DNA of 64,000 bases from a virus (IMGVR_UViG_3300011226_000001:1-64000), one strand, 5' to 3'. Counted from the stretch's first letter, positions 15,049-37,973 are shown. A program made the numbers and translations. Notes: generated by a model from the sequence alone, not told the origin.

Positions 15049-17178
15049 TTATTTAAATATATCGCCTGGCTTTTTCTTTTTCTTCTTCGCGTAAGGCAAA
15101 AGAATATGTTCGATGAAAGCCTTCGATGCTGCGTGTGTCATTGCTGGCACACAGACACGACCAAGACGTTCCCACTGCTCCTCGAACTTACCGACCAGCT
15201 TGTAGTCAGACGGCATCCCAGAAACAACCAGCAGTTCGTCGATGGTCAATTTACGGCGATGACCTTTGTTGTCTTCGATAAACCCAGCAGACGAGAAACG
15301 CGCTGTTTCATACGCGATTGCATCAGACGCTGTAATCGTTGGCATCGGTCCGTTGATAGCAGGCAGATACTTGATCAGGTCTTTCTGCGTCGTCTTGTAT
15401 CGTAAGATGTGAGGCAACGCATCGCCCAGAAAGGCTTGCGTATCGCACGGGATAACATCAGGCACAGCGTCACGCGCATTCTTATAGCCAAGCGCATGTG
15501 CTACGTCTTTACGTACACCCATGAAGATGATACGTTCACGAGACTGAGGCACACCTAACCAACAAGCATTCAGCATCGGCGCTCGGACATAATACCCGAG
15601 TTTGTCGAACGTCTTCATGATCTCAAGGAAGTACCCTTTCGAGATTCCCTTCACAAGACCACTAACGTTCTCCGCCGTGAATACTTTCGGCATCATGCCT
15701 TGCAGCATACGACAATACTGATCGAACAGGTCATCTACCTGCTGATACTTATTGTCGCTGTACTTAACTTCTTTGCCCCAGCCTTCTTCTTTCACGCCAG
15801 CCGTCGAGAAGCCTTTGCAGTTGTGAACCACAGTACCATTAGCAACATACGTTTCATCGGTCTCAACCGAGAAGTTATACACGTCACACGTTGCCTGATA
15901 CGCAAGAGTCTCAACAACCACTGTCCAAAGATGCGGGTCTTCTTTGCTGAACTCGTGGAAGAAGTTGTGCTCTTCCTGCAAGAACAAGTACCCGATGTGC
16001 TCACGCGCACTTTGGCGATCACGCGGAGTTAACGAGCTGCCGAAGTAAACATCGCCCCAAATCAGACCGTCGAACAGTGGTCTGTTGAATGCGCTACAGC
16101 ACAGATAGTTAAGCTCAAGCAGGAAGCGTTTGCTGTTCGAAGCGATAGCGATACCAGTACCCATCGCAGTCACATAGTCCATGCCCGCACAACCGAGAAT
16201 GAATTGCTGTTTCAGCTCGACGCTCATGTGGAACATCATTGCAGGCAGACGTCGGGAGAACGTGTTGTTACCCTGACTGATAAAGCGGCGCAAGAACTGC
16301 ACCAGCTCCGCATCAATAACAGTACGGAACGTTTTGCGTTGCGCTGTTTTCACATCAATGCGATTCAGGCTACTGATTTTAAGCGCGTCAAACGCCTGCT
16401 CAATCATCGCGTTTTCAATGCTACTATGCGACTCAAAGCTAACGACTTCAATGCCACTAACTGTTTCGATTGAACCACGATCGCACCAGTGTCCTACCAT
16501 CCACCAGAACTCAGGAATACACACCCACTGTTGAATCATCTTCGGCAGTTGTGCAATCTGATTGTGATACACATCAGCAGGTAGATCAGGCGTAGTACGC
16601 GGCGTGCCGAGCAAGTCACCTTCTTGCACGTCTTTCGCATCACACCAGAACGGCTCAGAGTAACCACCAGACTCCAGCGGGCGACGAACGAAGAACGGAT
16701 GTTCAGGCGTAGCGTTGTTGCTGCTGATCATCGTTTCGATTTTGTGCATCGTACCGACATACGGTCTGACCATAGTGTCGTATACAGGGTAATACTGCCC
16801 GACACTGGTCATTGCTCTGTCGCCGACGTTCATGTCCGAGATGAACTTCATGCCGTCTGCTGTATGAATGATAGTGTCTTCGGTAAAGCATGGAGGACTA
16901 CCGTCAAGTAAATCAAGTTCGCCTTTATCCAGACCGCAATAGCGTAACAGCTTGCCCGGATCTAAACGGCGAATGTCATGAGGCAGCACTTTCGTTGTCG
17001 GGTGGTTAGCTTCGTATGACTCTCTTGCGGGGTCAACAAACTCGTTACTCAGCAAGATGTTGATACCGGCCATCTTGTGGCCGGTAGAAGAACCACCGCA
17101 ACCTGCGAAGAAACTCATACCACGCCAGGGTTTATCCAGCTTGTTGATTTCCTTCATCGTAGGCGGCTTGATGATCAT
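15049..17178 (-). CDS. C5-cytosine DNA methyltransferase-family enzyme with intein; predicted carboxymethyltransferase
   Basis: Motif I FFAGCGG, motif IV GSPP|C, motif VI ENV, motif VIII QSRER; motif X reads LGRVCVP instead of GNS/AV. Confidence 0.9.
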   Translation of the reverse strand: MIIKPPTMKEINKLDKPWRGMSFFAGCGGSSTGHKMAGINILLSNEFVDPARESYEANHPTTKVLPHDIRRLDPGKLLRYCGLDKGELDLLDGSPPCFTEDTIIHTADGMKFISDMNVGDRAMTSVGQYYPVYDTMVRPYVGTMHKIETMISSNNATPEHPFFVRRPLESGGYSEPFWCDAKDVQEGDLLGTPRTTPDLPADVYHNQIAQLPKMIQQWVCIPEFWWMVGHWCDRGSIETVSGIEVVSFESHSSIENAMIEQAFDALKISSLNRIDVKTAQRKTFRTVIDAELVQFLRRFISQGNNTFSRRLPAMMFHMSVELKQQFILGCAGMDYVTAMGTGIAIASNSKRFLLELNYLCCSAFNRPLFDGLIWGDVYFGSSLTPRDRQSAREHIGYLFLQEEHNFFHEFSKEDPHLWTVVVETLAYQATCDVYNFSVETDETYVANGTVVHNCKGFSTAGVKEEGWGKEVKYSDNKYQQVDDLFDQYCRMLQGMMPKVFTAENVSGLVKGISKGYFLEIMKTFDKLGYYVRAPMLNACWLGVPQSRERIIFMGVRKDVAHALGYKNARDAVPDVIPCDTQAFLGDALPHILRYKTTQKDLIKYLPAINGPMPTITASDAIAYETARFSSAGFIEDNKGHRRKLTIDELLVVSGMPSDYKLVGKFEEQWERLGRVCVPAMTHAASKAFIEHILLPYAKKKKKKPGDIFK
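15820..16890 (-). mobile_element. cis intein (357 aa) with degenerate LAGLIDADG domain, inserted before the catalytic Cys
   Basis: Starts CFTEDT, block B ATPEHPF, ends VYNFSVETDETYVANGTVVHN, +1 Cys; splicing restores SPPCKGFS. Confidence 0.92.
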
Positions 17179-29160: not shown

Positions 29161-30003
29161 TCAGTAGTTCATTGCCAGAATTTCAACAGTACCATGCGAG
29201 CCGCTCTGGCCGTTGTTCATCGCATAGCTTTTATTTGGATAGAGCACGGTCGTCGCGTGTTTCTTTAACCAACGCTTTAGCAAGTCATTCGAGAAGTGAC
29301 GGTGCTCAGTAACGTTGCTCAACATCCACGGTACACCTAAGCGATTGAGTTGCTCCAGAGTAGCAAGCAGGTTACGCTCATTCGTTTCAGTCCACTTGCC
29401 GTACTGCATTGCACCGCTCGCCAGATATGGCGGGTCGAAGTAACAGAACGTGTTGCAGTTCAGTTGAGAGCCTAAGCGACTCAGTAACTTACCGTACTTC
29501 ATGTTCGTCAGATGGACGCCTTGCATGTGACTATGGAAAGTAGTGAGTTCGTTCTCCAGCTCGTCGAACTTTCCAATCAGACCACGATCACCAAAGCCTA
29601 CGTTGTACACACCATGCTGGTTGAAACGCAGCATATTCGAGTGCGCATGTCTGTGTGCAACGTAATGCAATATCGGTGTACGCTTCTTCTGGACGACAGT
29701 TCGAAACGCATCGTAGTTCGCTTCGTTGCTGTTTGTCAGGCACCAGTGTTTGACCAGACGCTTGACTTGACCGAGAGTCTTCTTCGGGTCTTGTTCCACC
29801 AGCATCTTAACGATCTCAAATACCTGAGGACTAAGCTCGTTGTACACACGAAACTTCTGTGGCATGTTAGCGCAGACAGTGGCACTACCACCAAACACAT
29901 CGACCATACGCGGACAGTCTTGTACGCTTGGCGTGTGCTCAAGAATAAGAGGGATAAGGCTTCGCTTATTGCCCTGATAACGGATAGGACTGATTACGGT
30001 CAT
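29161..30003 (-). CDS. dam: DNA adenine methyltransferase (Dam/D12 class)
   Basis: PIRYQGNK, DVFGGS, FDPPY motifs. Confidence 0.88.
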   Translation of the reverse strand: MTVISPIRYQGNKRSLIPLILEHTPSVQDCPRMVDVFGGSATVCANMPQKFRVYNELSPQVFEIVKMLVEQDPKKTLGQVKRLVKHWCLTNSNEANYDAFRTVVQKKRTPILHYVAHRHAHSNMLRFNQHGVYNVGFGDRGLIGKFDELENELTTFHSHMQGVHLTNMKYGKLLSRLGSQLNCNTFCYFDPPYLASGAMQYGKWTETNERNLLATLEQLNRLGVPWMLSNVTEHRHFSNDLLKRWLKKHATTVLYPNKSYAMNNGQSGSHGTVEILAMNY

Positions 30004-32473: not shown

Positions 32474-33094
32474 TTACTGCTGCTGGCGCTTTTCAAGGAA
32501 CTCTCGCACCAGACCTGCATAGTTGTGATAGACGTTGCGCTTCACACCGAGTTTGTGTGCTGCAACGATCATTGACGGACTCGATAAGAACTTAGGCGTG
32601 TCGTCCAGTTCTTCACGCGCTCCGTGTTCATCGAACTCAGACCCTGCTGCGAATCGCACAGCCTTGTCTGCTACAATGAACTCGTGGTCGAGGTCGAAGT
32701 GCTTCAAACGACCAGCGATGCGCCCGAGTTGTCGTTGCTTCTGATAGACATTTACAGAAATTGAGGAGGCAACGACAGGCGTAGACCCACATTTGAGATC
32801 ATCGCAGTAGATGATGTTATGACTCTGACCGCATTGGTCAATCATGTTGCGAGCCACCAGCGAACCTACATAGCTGCTAATCAAGAACAGACCGCGATAC
32901 GTGCCGAGCACATTACCGATATGCTTCTCAATCTCTTCGGGAGTAAATCCCATAGACAGCGAAGGATAAGTTGCTGCTACTGCGCGGCGTCGTGGATCAC
33001 TAGGAGCGTGAACACGCGCTTTAATGCCGGACTCTAGCAGATTGTGGAATACGTAGCTTCCGCCTACGCCACCGTCAATGATGTGTACTAACAT
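32474..33094 (-). CDS. degenerate glutamate-racemase-like protein
   Basis: IIDGGVGG resembles MurI FDSGVGG; the catalytic Cys motifs are not recognisable. Confidence 0.35.
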   Translation of the reverse strand: MLVHIIDGGVGGSYVFHNLLESGIKARVHAPSDPRRRAVAATYPSLSMGFTPEEIEKHIGNVLGTYRGLFLISSYVGSLVARNMIDQCGQSHNIIYCDDLKCGSTPVVASSISVNVYQKQRQLGRIAGRLKHFDLDHEFIVADKAVRFAAGSEFDEHGAREELDDTPKFLSSPSMIVAAHKLGVKRNVYHNYAGLVREFLEKRQQQ

Positions 33095-33095
33095 A

Positions 33096-33965
33096 TTAAG
33101 TCCTCGTTGACCAATCACGCGCAAGATCCATAACACGCTTGCGACCGTTGAAGTTGATCTCAGGATTATCCAGTAAGCGTTCGAAGTACGCAGGTACTCC
33201 AGCTTCTGTTTGATAGCCGCGGTGAGGACGATGCCCTACCACAGCGATGTGATCAGCCCATGCTTCTGTAATTGGCATTTTTTGCTTAGGCTGATTTAGT
33301 TCTTGCCACGAACGACCGATGAAGTAGTCATGGACTTTCTTCAACAGCCACGGGTTAACGTGAGTCAGGCCGAAAGTGTCGCACAGCATTTCGTGTTGCA
33401 GCATACCACTTGGGTTATAGCCGTCGACGCCGAGAGACTTCTTACCGTTCTTGAACCACGGAGCCCAGTATTCTTTGCGATACTCGTCGAACTTTTCGAG
33501 TACGCTATGCGGGCCGCTGATTTTTGCGATGTGGGTGTTACGCGCAAAGCAGAAGTAAGCGTCAGCAACAAGGCCGCTGAGAACGTACTTGTAACCTGCT
33601 TCTTTGATTGCCTTGTAGCAATACACCATAGGGTAAGCACACTCATAGTCACGCTTTTTGATACAGCGATACTTGGCGTGAAGTGTGCGCCAACCCTGAG
33701 CGATAGCAGTGTCAGACGTAGGAACTTTCACAAGCGTGAACTCCCAACCCATCTTCTCTGCGACTTTACGCGCGTGTTTGCTGTCGAAACTTTCGTTGTC
33801 GCCCATCTGGAAAGTAAAGGCATGTACCTTCTTTCCTAAGTCATGGGCAGCGAGCCCGCTAACAAGTCCGTCAAGACCACTGGATAGCAGCACTGCCACC
33901 TTGTCGTCTTTGACTTCTGCTTTAACGTGCTGTTCAAACAGCTTGCGCAAAACGTGTTTAGCCAT
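33096..33965 (-). CDS. asparagine-synthetase-like ATP-dependent amide ligase lacking the glutaminase domain
   Basis: VAVLLSSGLD PP-loop, VLSGLVADAYF, NPWL, QPKQK; only 289 aa. Confidence 0.75.
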   Translation of the reverse strand: MAKHVLRKLFEQHVKAEVKDDKVAVLLSSGLDGLVSGLAAHDLGKKVHAFTFQMGDNESFDSKHARKVAEKMGWEFTLVKVPTSDTAIAQGWRTLHAKYRCIKKRDYECAYPMVYCYKAIKEAGYKYVLSGLVADAYFCFARNTHIAKISGPHSVLEKFDEYRKEYWAPWFKNGKKSLGVDGYNPSGMLQHEMLCDTFGLTHVNPWLLKKVHDYFIGRSWQELNQPKQKMPITEAWADHIAVVGHRPHRGYQTEAGVPAYFERLLDNPEINFNGRKRVMDLARDWSTRT

Positions 33966-34902
33966 GATTACCCAGCCTTAAAATATTCGCAGTTGTTGTT
34001 CCGTGAAGTTCAGCCAGATAGTCTGCGCGAACGTTAGGACCGAGTAGTTCAATCTCAGAGTCAAACGGTAGCTCAGTATCTGACAATACGAAGGCATGGT
34101 TCATGCTGATTGCGTGGTCAACTCCTGTAAGCAACGTGACTTGCGCATGTGGTGCGTCAGGACAATGCACAGGTGTGTTCTTGGCAGACTGATACAGGTT
34201 ATCGTAGTAACCCACATCAATCGAGTACAGGAACTTGTCTGCGCAGTTAGGTACTAATGCACCGTAACCAAATACTTTACCTGCATCCAGCTTATCGCAG
34301 ATACGAGCAAGCACTGTCTTCGCTACACGCAAATTACCGTTCACAGTTTCATCGCTACTATAACCGGTAAGTGCCATGCCAACACGCGGTTTCAACTTCG
34401 GCGCGTACGGATTAAGCACGTTCATGCTTGAGCCAACAGACAGCATAGACAGCGGTACGTTGTAGCGTTGTGCAATCTCGTTAGCATCGTACTCAGACAC
34501 AGGCACACGGTAATCATCCGAGTGAACAAGAATCAATGCTGGTGGGTGCGTTAAACCTTCAGGCTTGACGTTGATACGACGACAACCCCAATCAGCAAAG
34601 ACAGCGTATCGTCCTTCATACTTGCCTACTTGCTTTGCGTTCAGAACAGGCACTGTATTCCACATGCGCCCGTCTACACCACCGAGAATTAACAGCGTGT
34701 GGTCGAGTTCAAGTTCACGCAGCGCGAGCACGTCACGGTCGCTATGAACAGCGAGCACCTCAAACCCTAAAGAGAATGCTTTCACGCAATCTAAACCATG
34801 CCCGTAGAAATTACCTTTCACAACCGGAATCATGGACGGAGCGAGTGATTTTAAATAGGCCGCATTACTCGCTAACGCGGCATTGTCGATTAAGACTTTC
34901 AT
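33958..34902 (-). CDS. alanine-racemase-family PLP enzyme
   Basis: PVVKGNFYGHG (PLP Lys), RVG..L.G, FGYG (second catalytic Tyr), GYYD, ISMN. Confidence 0.8.
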   Translation of the reverse strand: MKVLIDNAALASNAAYLKSLAPSMIPVVKGNFYGHGLDCVKAFSLGFEVLAVHSDRDVLALRELELDHTLLILGGVDGRMWNTVPVLNAKQVGKYEGRYAVFADWGCRRINVKPEGLTHPPALILVHSDDYRVPVSEYDANEIAQRYNVPLSMLSVGSSMNVLNPYAPKLKPRVGMALTGYSSDETVNGNLRVAKTVLARICDKLDAGKVFGYGALVPNCADKFLYSIDVGYYDNLYQSAKNTPVHCPDAPHAQVTLLTGVDHAISMNHAFVLSDTELPFDSEIELLGPNVRADYLAELHGTTTANILRLGNHG

Positions 34903-35933
34903 CAGCGTTTCAGCGTCGTGATGTAGTGAGCAACACGGTCGAACTCTTCACCGCCCGCTTGTGGATCAAACGCTACGTAACCACTGCTCTTAGAAAGATT
35001 ACGCAGATACACTTCACGCTCTTTCCTTGTCATCTTCACTTCGCAGAAGTTGATACTGATACCGACAACTTTCGGGTACCAGTCGTGCATTGCGGCAGCA
35101 GCGAGATTGGCAGAGATCTCGTCAACGATGTTGATCTCGCGCTCGGTGTTCATCATGAAGTTGCGACCGACAGTGTGGCAGACAACGATAGCGTCAGGCT
35201 GAGAGCCAGCAATCAGGCTCATGCTACCGCCGGTGTAAGCTGGATGACGCAGCGCACCCTGACCTTCAATCAGATAGATAGCTTCTTCGTCAGCAGGTGA
35301 CAGCCACTCAGCAGCACCGGCAAGGAAGTCAGCGACCACAGTGTCGTTGTTGATGCCACGACCGCTAATCAGAAAACCAGTTTGACCGGTAGCACAGAAC
35401 ACAGCTTTCTGTTTCAGCTCGGTCAGCTTCTTGGTCAGTGCGAGTGCAGTAAATTTCTTACCGCACGAACAGTCAGTACCAACAGTAAGAACACGAACAC
35501 CGGCACGAGGCAGACCAGTGCCCAGAGGATATTGCTCAGGGTGGTGGCGGAAGTCATACAGCGATACTCCATGCTCACGAGCTAAAGCGAAGTATTTAGG
35601 GTTGTCAGACAGCTTGACATGCAGAGCAGCAGCAACGTTCAGGCCTCGCTTCAATGCTTCGCAGATGGCGCGATCAATGTCTTCGTTAATCTGACCGCCA
35701 AATGGTGCAAACCCGATGACCAGAGTTTCTGCATCGGTCTTATCGAGGTCACGAATTTCAACGTGAGGCATTTCAGGGAACAGGTTGTTAGCATCGTCAA
35801 CTACACAGCAGACTTTCTCTGACGCCCACTCAACCATACCGGCAGTGATCTTCGCCATTGCTTTCGTCGTGGCGTTACCACAGAACATCGCGTACGGTTG
35901 CGGAATATTATAGATATCACCAATCACGCTCAT
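34902..35933 (-). CDS. DUF1611-family (DgcN-like) P-loop protein
   Basis: VGTDCSCGKK, ATGQTG, DFLAGAAE, IEGQG, GSQPD. Confidence 0.85.
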   Translation of the reverse strand: MSVIGDIYNIPQPYAMFCGNATTKAMAKITAGMVEWASEKVCCVVDDANNLFPEMPHVEIRDLDKTDAETLVIGFAPFGGQINEDIDRAICEALKRGLNVAAALHVKLSDNPKYFALAREHGVSLYDFRHHPEQYPLGTGLPRAGVRVLTVGTDCSCGKKFTALALTKKLTELKQKAVFCATGQTGFLISGRGINNDTVVADFLAGAAEWLSPADEEAIYLIEGQGALRHPAYTGGSMSLIAGSQPDAIVVCHTVGRNFMMNTEREINIVDEISANLAAAAMHDWYPKVVGISINFCEVKMTRKEREVYLRNLSKSSGYVAFDPQAGGEEFDRVAHYITTLKR

Positions 35934-37195
35934 TTCTTCTTCCCTTTCGTTTTGATTTTGGTGCCATCGAACGTCAAGCCCATACGAGCATGACACTTGT
36001 GTATAGCTTTTACAGTACGCATTAACGTCTGCGTCTTCGACCAGTCTACTACGCCTTTTTCTTCGAGTTCTTTCGACAGGTCGGTCTTCATAGGCTTGCC
36101 GTCATCAGGCACGACTGCATTCTTCATGAAGTCAGCCCAGCCTTTGTCTACGCTCTTGCACCAGTTTGTCAGCAGCGTAGCGCGTTCAGCTTTCGTCAGG
36201 TACTTCGTGCAAGCCCAGTAAGCAATCTCATTGCCCAGTTCTTCCACCTCTTTCGCAGTCACACGGTCAACAGTGCGAATGTGGATGTGCTTGTTCTCAG
36301 AGCAGAAGCGCGTATAGTCTCGCGCCCAATCGTACTTAGAAGTTTGCACAACGAACGTCGGGCAGTACGGAATAGTCTCACGTACACCGTTAGCGAATGA
36401 CTCTACTTCGGCACATGACAGCGCTACGGTACATTGTCCAATGAACGCCATCTTCTCGTCGCCGGACAGACCGCTAACGACTTGATAATCTTTCACACCT
36501 GCATCAGCAAGCTCTTTCTCCCAGCTTCTGACTTGACGATCAGAGCCGGTCATCACACGAACAGGCAGACCAGATGCAGCAGCAATACGCGCAGCAAACG
36601 CAGGACGCTTAACCTTCTCGTATCGACAGATAATCAGCAGCGAGGGTTTACGTTTCGCAGGAGGATTGTAGTCTGATACACTGAATGCGTTGTACGCAAC
36701 AGCAGCCTCAGTTTTATAAATCTCAGACAGCACACGCGCAGTTGAGTCACAGTTCGCTAAGATACGCAGACCAGTGACAGGCGCTTGCAGCAGCGCACGG
36801 TGCATCTTCTCAGCGCCAAGCCCGTTCAGGTCTTGCGTCAACAGGAAGCTGTTATGTGAACGGTAGTAAACAGGCATAATCTTAGGCAGCCCGAGACCGA
36901 CAGCAGCTTCGACAGCTTCGTAGGTGCTACAAATGATTGCACGGTACGGAGTGCGGTCGAGCGCTTCGAGCAGAGCACTTTGAATGTGACCAACTTTGTA
37001 CCCGTCACTCAGAGTGGTGTCACCGTAGTTAAACCACTGGCTCTTGGTGACAGAGCTGTTTTCACCGTCAGTGATGAAGTCGCAGAAGCCGTACGCTTCG
37101 AGTCCATCAATGTACGCACCTACACCAGACTTGGTTCTGTCCAGAAGAGTCTTGTGAGGCACGATTGCTAAGATACGCCCGTTTACTTTCATCAT
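35930..37195 (-). CDS. GT-B glycosyltransferase (GT4-like)
   Basis: SGVG, RSH, R...KRP, ESFANGVRE (Ex7E motif). Confidence 0.7.
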   Translation of the reverse strand: MMKVNGRILAIVPHKTLLDRTKSGVGAYIDGLEAYGFCDFITDGENSSVTKSQWFNYGDTTLSDGYKVGHIQSALLEALDRTPYRAIICSTYEAVEAAVGLGLPKIMPVYYRSHNSFLLTQDLNGLGAEKMHRALLQAPVTGLRILANCDSTARVLSEIYKTEAAVAYNAFSVSDYNPPAKRKPSLLIICRYEKVKRPAFAARIAAASGLPVRVMTGSDRQVRSWEKELADAGVKDYQVVSGLSGDEKMAFIGQCTVALSCAEVESFANGVRETIPYCPTFVVQTSKYDWARDYTRFCSENKHIHIRTVDRVTAKEVEELGNEIAYWACTKYLTKAERATLLTNWCKSVDKGWADFMKNAVVPDDGKPMKTDLSKELEEKGVVDWSKTQTLMRTVKAIHKCHARMGLTFDGTKIKTKGKKK

Positions 37196-37202
37196 ACTTC
37201 CC

Positions 37203-37973
37203 TTACTTAATTGCGATCCATCCAGCGAAGTTAAGATCGCGGTAGAAACATTCAACGCGGTCGAAGCCTGCTTTGCGCAGCAGTTCTTCGTTCCACGCGG
37301 CTTTGACAGGTACGAGTACGCCTTCAAGAGCTTTGCGTTTCGTCGCAATGCTCTCTTGCGAATAACCGTTGTCGCCCTTCATGCCGTAGTAAGTATCCAC
37401 CAGCAGACGGTCGAGGAAGTTGTCGTCACCCAACACTTTCTCAACGAGAATGAACGCACCGCCTTTCTGCAACGAGTCGTACACTTTCTCCAGAATGTGC
37501 TGACGATGTTCTATCGGCGTAAACTGGAGAGTAAGTACCGATAGAATAAGCGAACACTCTACCTGCTCGTCGAAGCGGAACGTGTCTACTTCAACCAGCG
37601 ACTCGCTACTGATTTTCGCTTTAGCCGTTTTCAGCACAGGGTTTTCACGCAGACGCTCAAGCATTGCAGGCGCGACTTCGTAGCAGCAATACATGTTGCC
37701 GACTTCACGATCAGGCTCAGGACGATCAGCAGCGTGGAGATACATGTACTCGCCGAACTCAGCACAGAACGGTTCGATAGCACGTCCAAGTGAAGCACCC
37801 AGATCAACGATAGCTGAACCCGGAGTCACGAACTGGCGACCAAGACGATAGGTCAGATCGCGCATACGATCATAGGAAGGAATTGAGTTTTGCAGCATGT
37901 TATCGAACACAGCAGCAACTGGCTCATTGAACTCCCAGCGACCGACAGGCATTGTTTTATCAACGTTGCTCAT
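37203..37973 (-). CDS. cmoA: carboxy-S-adenosyl-L-methionine synthase (CmoA-like)
   Basis: WEFNEPVAAVFDNMLQNSIPSY, DLGASLG, TLQF, LVEKV, KRKALEGV (CmoA signature Arg), NFAGWIAIK. Confidence 0.85.
   Translation of the reverse strand: MSNVDKTMPVGRWEFNEPVAAVFDNMLQNSIPSYDRMRDLTYRLGRQFVTPGSAIVDLGASLGRAIEPFCAEFGEYMYLHAADRPEPDREVGNMYCCYEVAPAMLERLRENPVLKTAKAKISSESLVEVDTFRFDEQVECSLILSVLTLQFTPIEHRQHILEKVYDSLQKGGAFILVEKVLGDDNFLDRLLVDTYYGMKGDNGYSQESIATKRKALEGVLVPVKAAWNEELLRKAGFDRVECFYRDLNFAGWIAIK

Follow-up and report, generated by a model that had tools for sequence, protein, structure and literature searches.

A phage gene module that may extend 5-carboxymethylcytosine in DNA beyond its glycine amide

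In the closest described system, that of Synechococcus phage S-B43, CmoA makes carboxy-S-adenosylmethionine (Cx-SAM), CmoX writes 5-carboxymethylcytosine (5cxmC) into DNA at GC sites, and CmoY, an Asn-synthetase-like enzyme, ligates glycine to 5cxmC to give a glycine amide, 5-glycylcarboxymethylcytosine (5gcxmC) (Yang et al., Nat Commun, Dec 2025; PMC12783734). Here, six tightly packed open reading frames (ORFs), all on the minus strand, are described at positions 32474-37973 of a 64,000-nucleotide (nt) stretch of viral DNA (IMGVR_UViG_3300011226_000001:1-64000, referred to below as the window). They encode homologues of CmoA and CmoY together with a GT4-like glycosyltransferase (GT), a DgcN-like DUF1611 protein, an alanine-racemase-like (Alr-like) protein and a protein of MurI fold. 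The core pathway is known; what is new is this extra gene set beside the core. These six genes and an intein-bearing CmoX gene located 15 kb away are interpreted, with a probability of about 0.7, as a cytosine hypermodification pathway that acts on the phage's own DNA and goes from 5cxmC past the glycine amide.

An earlier note on this DNA, made from the sequence alone, had pointed to a report of phage carboxymethylcytosine formation followed by amidation and had proposed a new DNA hypermodification. The report exists (PMC12783734), and the proposal survives in part: the extension genes are unreported, while the modification is not wholly new, its core CmoA-CmoX-CmoY chemistry being published. 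The main text and available supplements of that paper contain no mention of Erwinia, Dickeya, DUF1611, a racemase, a glycosyltransferase or an intein, and the literature search gave no other paper using CmoX in this sense and none joining DNA hypermodification with a racemase.

The core pathway and the split CmoX gene

The virus record from which the window comes has 268,224 bp and terminal repeats; the window covers the first 64 kb and is 93% identical at the DNA level to Erwinia phage pEa_SNUABM_17 (Alexandravirus, jumbo myoviruses of ~265 kb). As in S-B43, three homologous core enzymes are encoded, there is no CmoB and the ligase has no glutaminase domain. Unlike in S-B43, CmoX lies apart from the other genes and has an intein where its catalytic Cys stands, the ligase is part of a distinct, highly conserved clade (marked by a ~15-residue insert, the GHRPHRGYQTEA motif and an invariant PP-loop, SSGLDG), and the four extra genes are present. 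A second likeness is to the 5-hydroxymethyl-deoxyuridine and -deoxycytidine (5hmdU/5hmdC) hypermodifications (glycosylation, amino-acid or polyamine adducts), in which a C5 handle is followed by modular tailoring that varies among close relatives and in which glycosyltransferases are among the tailoring enzymes. The handle here would differ in being a carboxylate, which a methyltransferase homologue adds post-replicatively from Cx-SAM; tailoring would start with amide formation, and no kinase/pyrophosphoryl activation step was identified.

The best PDB match of the C5 enzyme of the window was 8YF3, the SpCmoX crystal structure (E 3e-52), and ordinary C5 methyltransferases matched at E 1e-14 or weaker; it is the sole C5 methyltransferase of the whole 268-kb genome. 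Its ERLGRVCVP segment aligns with ERVGRMVPP of 8YF3, which puts an Arg at the position of R350, the residue of S-B43 CmoX that contacts the Cx-SAM carboxylate (PMC12783734) and that is replaced by Asn in ordinary C5 methyltransferases. The earlier note had read the gene as encoding an Arg-variant C5 enzyme; this identity was borne out, with the correction that a 357-aa intein lies inside. Its insertion point in the SPPC motif is directly after SPP and before the catalytic Cys (GSPP-intein-C-KGFS), which is thus the intein +1 residue; the intein begins with Cys (CFTEDT...) and ends with ...VVHN. The Pfam Hint_2 and Intein_splicing matches in the insert were weak, PF00145 covered only the two flanks, and the SPPC motif would be restored only by the predicted protein splicing. 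The same intein was found at this site throughout Alexandravirus and in Y3, Yoloswag, Rivsvirus and a Yersinia phage (34-89% identity), and a different intein occupied the same CmoX site in a metagenomic contig (L010).

Recurrence and modularity of the extension module

Tracing remote relatives of four proteins (glycosyltransferase, Alr-like protein, DUF1611 protein and ligase) led to separate lineages. The module was present in at least five separate phage lineages and directly abutted CmoX in three of them (metagenomic or IMG/VR): CmoX-GT-DUF1611-ligase-CmoA in contigs L010-L012, CmoX-DUF1611-Alr-ligase-CmoA in L018 and L019, and CmoX-DUF1611-ligase-CmoA in the IMG/VR contig L028. The order in L007 was CmoA-84 aa-GT-DUF1611-Alr-ligase-DAHP synthase (DAHP, 3-deoxy-D-arabino-heptulosonate 7-phosphate), and that in L038, a Joint Genome Institute (JGI) metagenome contig, was GT-DUF1611-ligase. 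The adjoining C5 methyltransferases of L012 and L018 carried both SPPC and the Arg of the ER.GR motif. In these other lineages the identity to the proteins of the window was 37-48% for the glycosyltransferase, 41-57% for DUF1611, 43-51% for the Alr-like protein and 48-62% for CmoA; the extension module is not a single cassette of recent transfer. Conservation was by far the highest in the ligase, with 64-79% identity in these lineages and 64-85% across phage lineages in general, vs. 37-62% for its neighbours. The ligase clade had no match among 185,579 prokaryote species genomes and appears to be phage-only.

Two side observations concern these contigs. In L018 an Acb1-family (anti-CBASS, that is, against the cyclic-oligonucleotide-based anti-phage signalling system) gene lies downstream of the operon CmoX-DUF1611-Alr-ligase-CmoA at a distance of ~1 kb (L018:11495-12004, plus strand), and would put DNA modification beside another counter-defence gene. 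In L038 a 302-aa GNAT acetyltransferase is encoded two genes downstream of GT-DUF1611-ligase (L038:9523-10431, plus strand).

The phage collection surveyed held 50,697 records, and DUF1611 homologues were found in 32 of them, every one (32/32) with CmoX at 82% or above and a ligase of the clade described above (P0005 type), likewise at least 82%. All 10 records with an Alr-like gene and all 19 with a close glycosyltransferase fell within these 32; three remote GT-like tblastn hits lay outside. Occurrence of the operon in genomes lacking the Arg-variant methyltransferase, which the earlier note had named as evidence against its proposal, was checked and no case was found in this collection.

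A single syntenic locus of Alexandravirus and its neighbours, cultured phages of Erwinia and Dickeya, showed five architectures. Type A (as in pEa_SNUABM_2 and _30) consists of CmoA, a ligase (25-29% identical to that of the window) and the MurI-fold gene, and type B (Y3) adds a 2-oxoglutarate-Fe(II) (2OG-Fe(II)) oxygenase to this set. Type C (AD1, Alexandra) has the order CmoA-DUF1611-ligase-MurI-fold, type D (pEa_SNUABM_46, _7 and others) the order CmoA-GT-DUF1611-ligase-84 aa, and type E (this phage and pEa_SNUABM_17, _1 and _3) all six genes. CmoA (87-97% identity) and CmoX (80-99%) were near-constant across the types and the tailoring genes were swapped, the pattern expected of a DNA adduct under diversifying selection. 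The 84-aa ORFs of pEa_SNUABM_46 and L007 were mutually unrelated, and no remnant of the 206-aa MurI-fold gene was found in pEa_SNUABM_46. The additional gene of Y3 (L005:3595-4233, plus strand) is annotated as a 2OG-Fe(II) oxygenase and stands between the ligase and MurI-fold genes; NCBIfam gave no match for it. It suggests yet another adduct, perhaps a hydroxylated one.

Proteins encoded by the operon

The six genes are separated, in order of transcription, by 10 (7 from an in-frame ATG at 37195), -4, -1, -8 and +1 nt (Table 1), so that the operon with short gaps or overlaps described in the earlier note was confirmed, its largest gap being 10 nt, or 7 nt from the alternative start. A promoter and terminator scan gave signals at or below background. 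The family assignments of that note also largely held against profile hidden Markov models (HMMs), PDB entries and structural matches: CmoA with its KR signature Arg, a GT-B glycosyltransferase, a DUF1611 P-loop protein, an alanine-racemase homologue with the Lys for pyridoxal phosphate (PLP) and the catalytic Tyr, an Asn-synthetase-like ligase lacking the glutaminase domain, and a “degenerate MurI-like” protein.

Table 1. Features of the operon and of the related loci in the window (positions counted from the first nucleotide).
Feature	Position	Strand	Length and support
CmoA, carboxy-SAM synthase	37203..37973	(-)	256 aa; TIGR00740, PDB 4GEK, phrog_4752
GT4-like (GT-B) glycosyltransferase	35930..37192	(-)	420 aa; alternative ATG 37195; family profile, EX7E
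DUF1611 / DgcN-like P-loop protein	34902..35933	(-)	343 aa; PF17396 + PF07755, NCBIfam DgcN, PDB 7XRJ
Alanine-racemase-like fold-type III PLP enzyme	33958..34902	(-)	314 aa; PF01168
CmoY-like ATP-dependent amide ligase (Asn-synthetase domain only)	33096..33965	(-)	289 aa; PF00733
Glutamate-racemase-fold protein, Ser at both catalytic Cys positions	32474..33094	(-)	206 aa; AlphaFold model
CmoX, DNA cytosine-C5 carboxymethyltransferase homologue	15049..17178	(-)	PDB 8YF3, SPP-C, ERLGR
Intein within the CmoX gene	15820..16890	(-)	357 aa; Hint_2 / Intein_splicing weak
D12-class N6-adenine DNA methyltransferase	29161..30003	(-)	PF02086 E 5e-23

CmoA matched TIGR00740 (E 1e-42) with 146 bits, vs. 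an equivalog cut-off of 193 bits, the score being depressed by an insertion near residues 63-98; it also matched 4GEK (E 2e-30) and phrog_4752 (E 2e-80), and was 34% identical to the experimentally active CmoA of S-B43. Its KR pair aligned with that of E. coli CmoA (“atKRkaLEgV” vs. “sqKRsmLEnV” of 4GEK). The Arg of this pair is required for the use of prephenate. CmoB, for which the earlier note had found no gene in the window, was absent from the entire 268-kb genome. Neither a chorismate mutase, a DAHP synthase nor a sugar-nucleotidyltransferase was found in the phage's own genome, and prephenate and the sugar donor must therefore be host-derived. In L007 an AroFGH-type DAHP synthase (L007:14162-15025, plus strand; 287 aa, N-terminally short) follows directly after the ligase and scored 180 bits against TIGR00034, above the cut-off of 173 bits. 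Catalysing the first reaction of the shikimate route, this synthase probably raises the supply from shikimate to prephenate for CmoA, and its presence fits the prephenate need of CmoA.

The ligase matched PF00733 (E 2e-15) over an Asn-synthetase domain only and was recognised as a CmoY homologue (tblastn against the S-B43 CmoY gene, E 8e-36; 33-38% identity to SpCmoY); phmmer gave no match for it among PDB sequences.

In the DUF1611 protein both domains were present (PF17396, E 3e-18; PF07755, E 1e-48). It matched the NCBIfam DgcN model NF041892 (E 2e-88, 296.7 bits) and PDB 7XRJ (E 8e-58), carries GTDCSCGKK, and shares with 7XRJ the blocks GTDCSxGK, ATGQTG and IEGQG, which argue that DgcN-type chemistry is kept. 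DgcN is the DUF1611 N-acetyltransferase (7XRJ) of the DgcN-DgcA route of D-glutamate catabolism in marine bacteria; the phage protein has both of its domains, but it stands below the equivalog cut-off, has no DgcA partner and sits in a phage DNA-modification operon. It is a DgcN homologue and not an equivalog.

The Alr-like protein scored 34.8 bits against PF01168 (the N-domain; cut-off 24.1) and matched PF00842 weakly. Among enzyme models it matched those of racemases only (alr, VanT and DadX) and none of decarboxylases. K29 (the PLP Lys, in VVKGNFYGHG), R173 (the pyridine-N Arg, in RVGMALTGY) and Y213 (the second base, in FGYG) aligned to Alr structures and were invariant in six members of the family at identities down to 40%.

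Pfam gave no match for the 420-aa glycosyltransferase of the window; a 39%-identical homologue (P0028) had a weak match to PF00534 (Glycos_transf_1). The family profile matched PDB 9V0L, a GT-B glucosyltransferase, over the EX7E region (E 0.007), the EX7E pair E264/E272 of the C-terminal nucleotide-sugar domain was invariant in the family, and the Atlas feature scores to GT4 clusters were 0.97-0.98. These scores and the PF00534 match of P0028 lend indirect support to a putative GT-B fold of two Rossmann domains.

The 206-aa protein matched nothing in HMM searches, including PF01177, or when its family profile was compared with PDB sequences. AlphaFold gave a model of pLDDT (predicted local distance difference test) 43 from 16 close homologues, and of 92.3 from a trimmed alignment of 11 sequences that included four relatives at 25-49% identity, obtained in an exhaustive HMMER search. 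With the latter model the top 50 Foldseek matches in the PDB were all Glu/Asp racemases (E 2e-5; template modelling (TM) score 0.60-0.63), and VIA-align gave Z 13.6 to 5W16, the Thermus MurI (root-mean-square deviation 3.7, 182/206 residues), vs. a background Z of 7-8. In hhalign the family matched a MurI-like phage paralogue (fHe-Yen9-02 and L016; motifs ACNT and GSTH) with 97.6% probability. The modelled protein thus resembles MurI and the Asp/Glu racemases in its two-domain fold and in the invariant D7, at the position of the Asp of the N-terminal FDSG. It differs from them in that the hhalign alignment puts Ser where both catalytic Cys would stand (S74 and S172, each invariant among 11 members of the family), in having Ser for the His of GCTH, in being ~50 residues shorter and in escaping detection by PF01177. 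A ligand-binding accessory is more likely than a racemase. Its gene goes together with that of the ligase in cluster types A, B, C and E, as it does in jumbo phages that are more distant, and not in the other lineages. Atlas features had pointed to a small alpha/beta hydrolase; this candidate was rejected, as the two structural searches led to racemases and no Ser-His-Asp triad was present. In Yersinia phage fHe-Yen9-02 (L014:4404-4976, plus strand) and in L016 (L016:5399-5989, plus strand) a second MurI-like gene lies between those of the ligase and the Ser/Ser protein; its first catalytic Cys is kept (ACNT), its second is Ser (GSTH), and it matched TIGR00067 with E 2e-6.

Proposed pathway and alternatives

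In the proposed pathway CmoA would very probably convert S-adenosylmethionine (SAM) and host prephenate to Cx-SAM, given its homology to the tested phage enzyme, and spliced CmoX would, with equally high confidence from homology and the Arg signature, put 5cxmC in the DNA. The CmoY-like ligase is then likely to adenylate the carboxymethyl group and to form an amide with an amine. The DgcN-like protein is, from synteny, a probable member of the same pathway: DgcN makes N-acetyl-D-Glu, 5cxmC is cytosin-5-yl-acetic acid, and a 5cxmC-D-amino acid amide is formally an N-acetyl-D-amino acid substituted on its methyl group, so that, in the two most economical readings, DUF1611 might either contribute to forming an N-(cytosinylacetyl)-D-amino acid or N-acetylate a free amine remaining on the attached residue. 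More tentatively, at slightly under even odds, the Alr-like PLP enzyme would provide a D-amino acid where host pools are insufficient; host D-Ala and D-Glu pools may suffice in the clusters that contain DUF1611 but no Alr-like gene (types C and D, L011 and L028). There is an even chance that the GT4-like enzyme puts a sugar on the adduct, and thereby on the base. The Ser/Ser MurI-fold protein would be an accessory associated with the ligase, probably binding an amino-acid-like ligand without racemisation. We infer roles on the base for the racemase, DUF1611 and the glycosyltransferase, roles that conserved synteny strengthens; D-amino-acyl, acetyl and glycosyl adducts are all possible.

Several observations weigh against this pathway. 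The 296.7 bits of the DUF1611 protein fall below the DgcN equivalog cut-off of 480 and DgcA is lacking; the Alr-like protein reached 36 bits vs. the 168 of the TIGR00492 alr cut-off, its barrel domain being only partly recognised; and the PP-loop of the ligase, SSGLDG, is not the canonical SGGxDS, of which SpCmoY has the form SGGVDS. The DUF1611 gene of L028 is paired with a different ligase type, and in L038 neither CmoA nor CmoX was found in the 8 kb flanking the ligase on each side. Acidic D-amino acids, the substrates of DgcN, offer a GT4 enzyme no hydroxyl, and no single adduct therefore explains the four extra enzymes. Synteny is association and gives no order of steps, and the literature search returned no chemical data for any of these phages.

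Among the alternatives, the one that survives best also places the pathway on DNA but dispenses with the D-amino acid: the ligase would attach a diamine, or a diamino acid through its side-chain amine, and DUF1611 would N-acetylate the amine that remains. Neither the Alr-like nor the MurI-fold protein would then be a racemase: the first could be a PLP enzyme with a different specificity, the second a ligand-binding accessory. This alternative agrees with DgcN chemistry, the acetyl-CoA-dependent N-acetylation of an alpha-amine, and with the rule that an amine already bound in an amide cannot be acetylated; it also agrees with the loss of both catalytic Cys in the MurI-fold protein and with the clusters of AD1 type, SNUABM_46 type, L011 and L028, which have DUF1611 and lack Alr. 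It is nevertheless unlikely, because the Alr-like family keeps the PLP Lys and the Arg as well as Tyr, the second base specific to racemases, because its matches are to racemase and not decarboxylase models, and because enzymes of the DgcN family are D-specific. D-amino-acid chemistry, to which three independent D-amino-acid-related folds (DgcN-like, Alr-like and MurI-fold) in one operon point, stays a little short of an even chance in our estimate.

A role of the four extra genes away from DNA is rather improbable. Only CmoA, CmoX and the ligase would then act on DNA, forming an amide of the published type with glycine or a simple amine, and the remaining genes, merely co-located, would serve host D-amino-acid or peptidoglycan metabolism or glycosylate a component of the virion or host envelope. 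The DgcN, Alr and MurI families do normally handle free amino acids tied to cell-wall turnover, the cluster is modular with every extra gene missing from some phage, and no result here shows the extra proteins contacting DNA. Against such a division stand the order GT-DUF1611-(Alr)-ligase, kept between CmoX and CmoA at 37-57% protein identity, the restriction of DUF1611, glycosyltransferase and Alr homologues to genomes with CmoX (the three remote tblastn hits apart), and the co-variation of the ligase clade with DUF1611. Finally, the classical role of CmoA in tRNA modification, the public annotations as “tRNA methyltransferase” and the use of Cx-SAM in natural-product biosynthesis would suit carboxy-SAM made for tRNA (of the type of uridine 5-oxyacetic acid, cmo5U) or for a small-molecule pathway, with tailoring by the other enzymes, but this is very improbable in a genome without CmoB and with an Arg-type CmoX that adjoins the module in three lineages, the S-B43 homologues having been shown to act on DNA (PMC12783734).

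For the extended pathway on phage DNA, the most likely biological role is the shielding of that DNA from host nucleases, and the five gene sets at one locus in one genus would reflect diversifying selection on the adduct. Known as a natural base only since late 2025, 5cxmC has one known downstream product, the glycine amide; its carboxyl handle would here be built upon by enzymes previously unlinked to DNA, encoded in a module that recurs and is confined to phages. The presence among them of an acyltransferase of DgcN type, a racemase and a glycosyltransferase implies the attachment to cytosine of acetyl, amino-acyl (possibly D-) and glycosyl groups. The first D-amino-acid-bearing DNA base, with a D-amino acid from the phage racemase on 5cxmC, installed or capped by DgcN-type chemistry and glycosylated in some lineages, is the most novel form that this pathway might take and is less likely than not; if it were true, the five gene-set variants of one genus would yield a graded series of adducts. 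The cultured Erwinia and Dickeya phage variants are a natural knock-in/knock-out series for assigning gene functions, and new amide-linked adducts would be relevant to restriction and CRISPR evasion, to the biocontrol of fire blight with phages and to tools for site-specific DNA functionalisation.

The D12-class methyltransferase gene located ~2.5 kb downstream of the operon (Table 1) is syntenic in all relatives, and the phage DNA therefore probably also carries N6-methyladenine (6mA).

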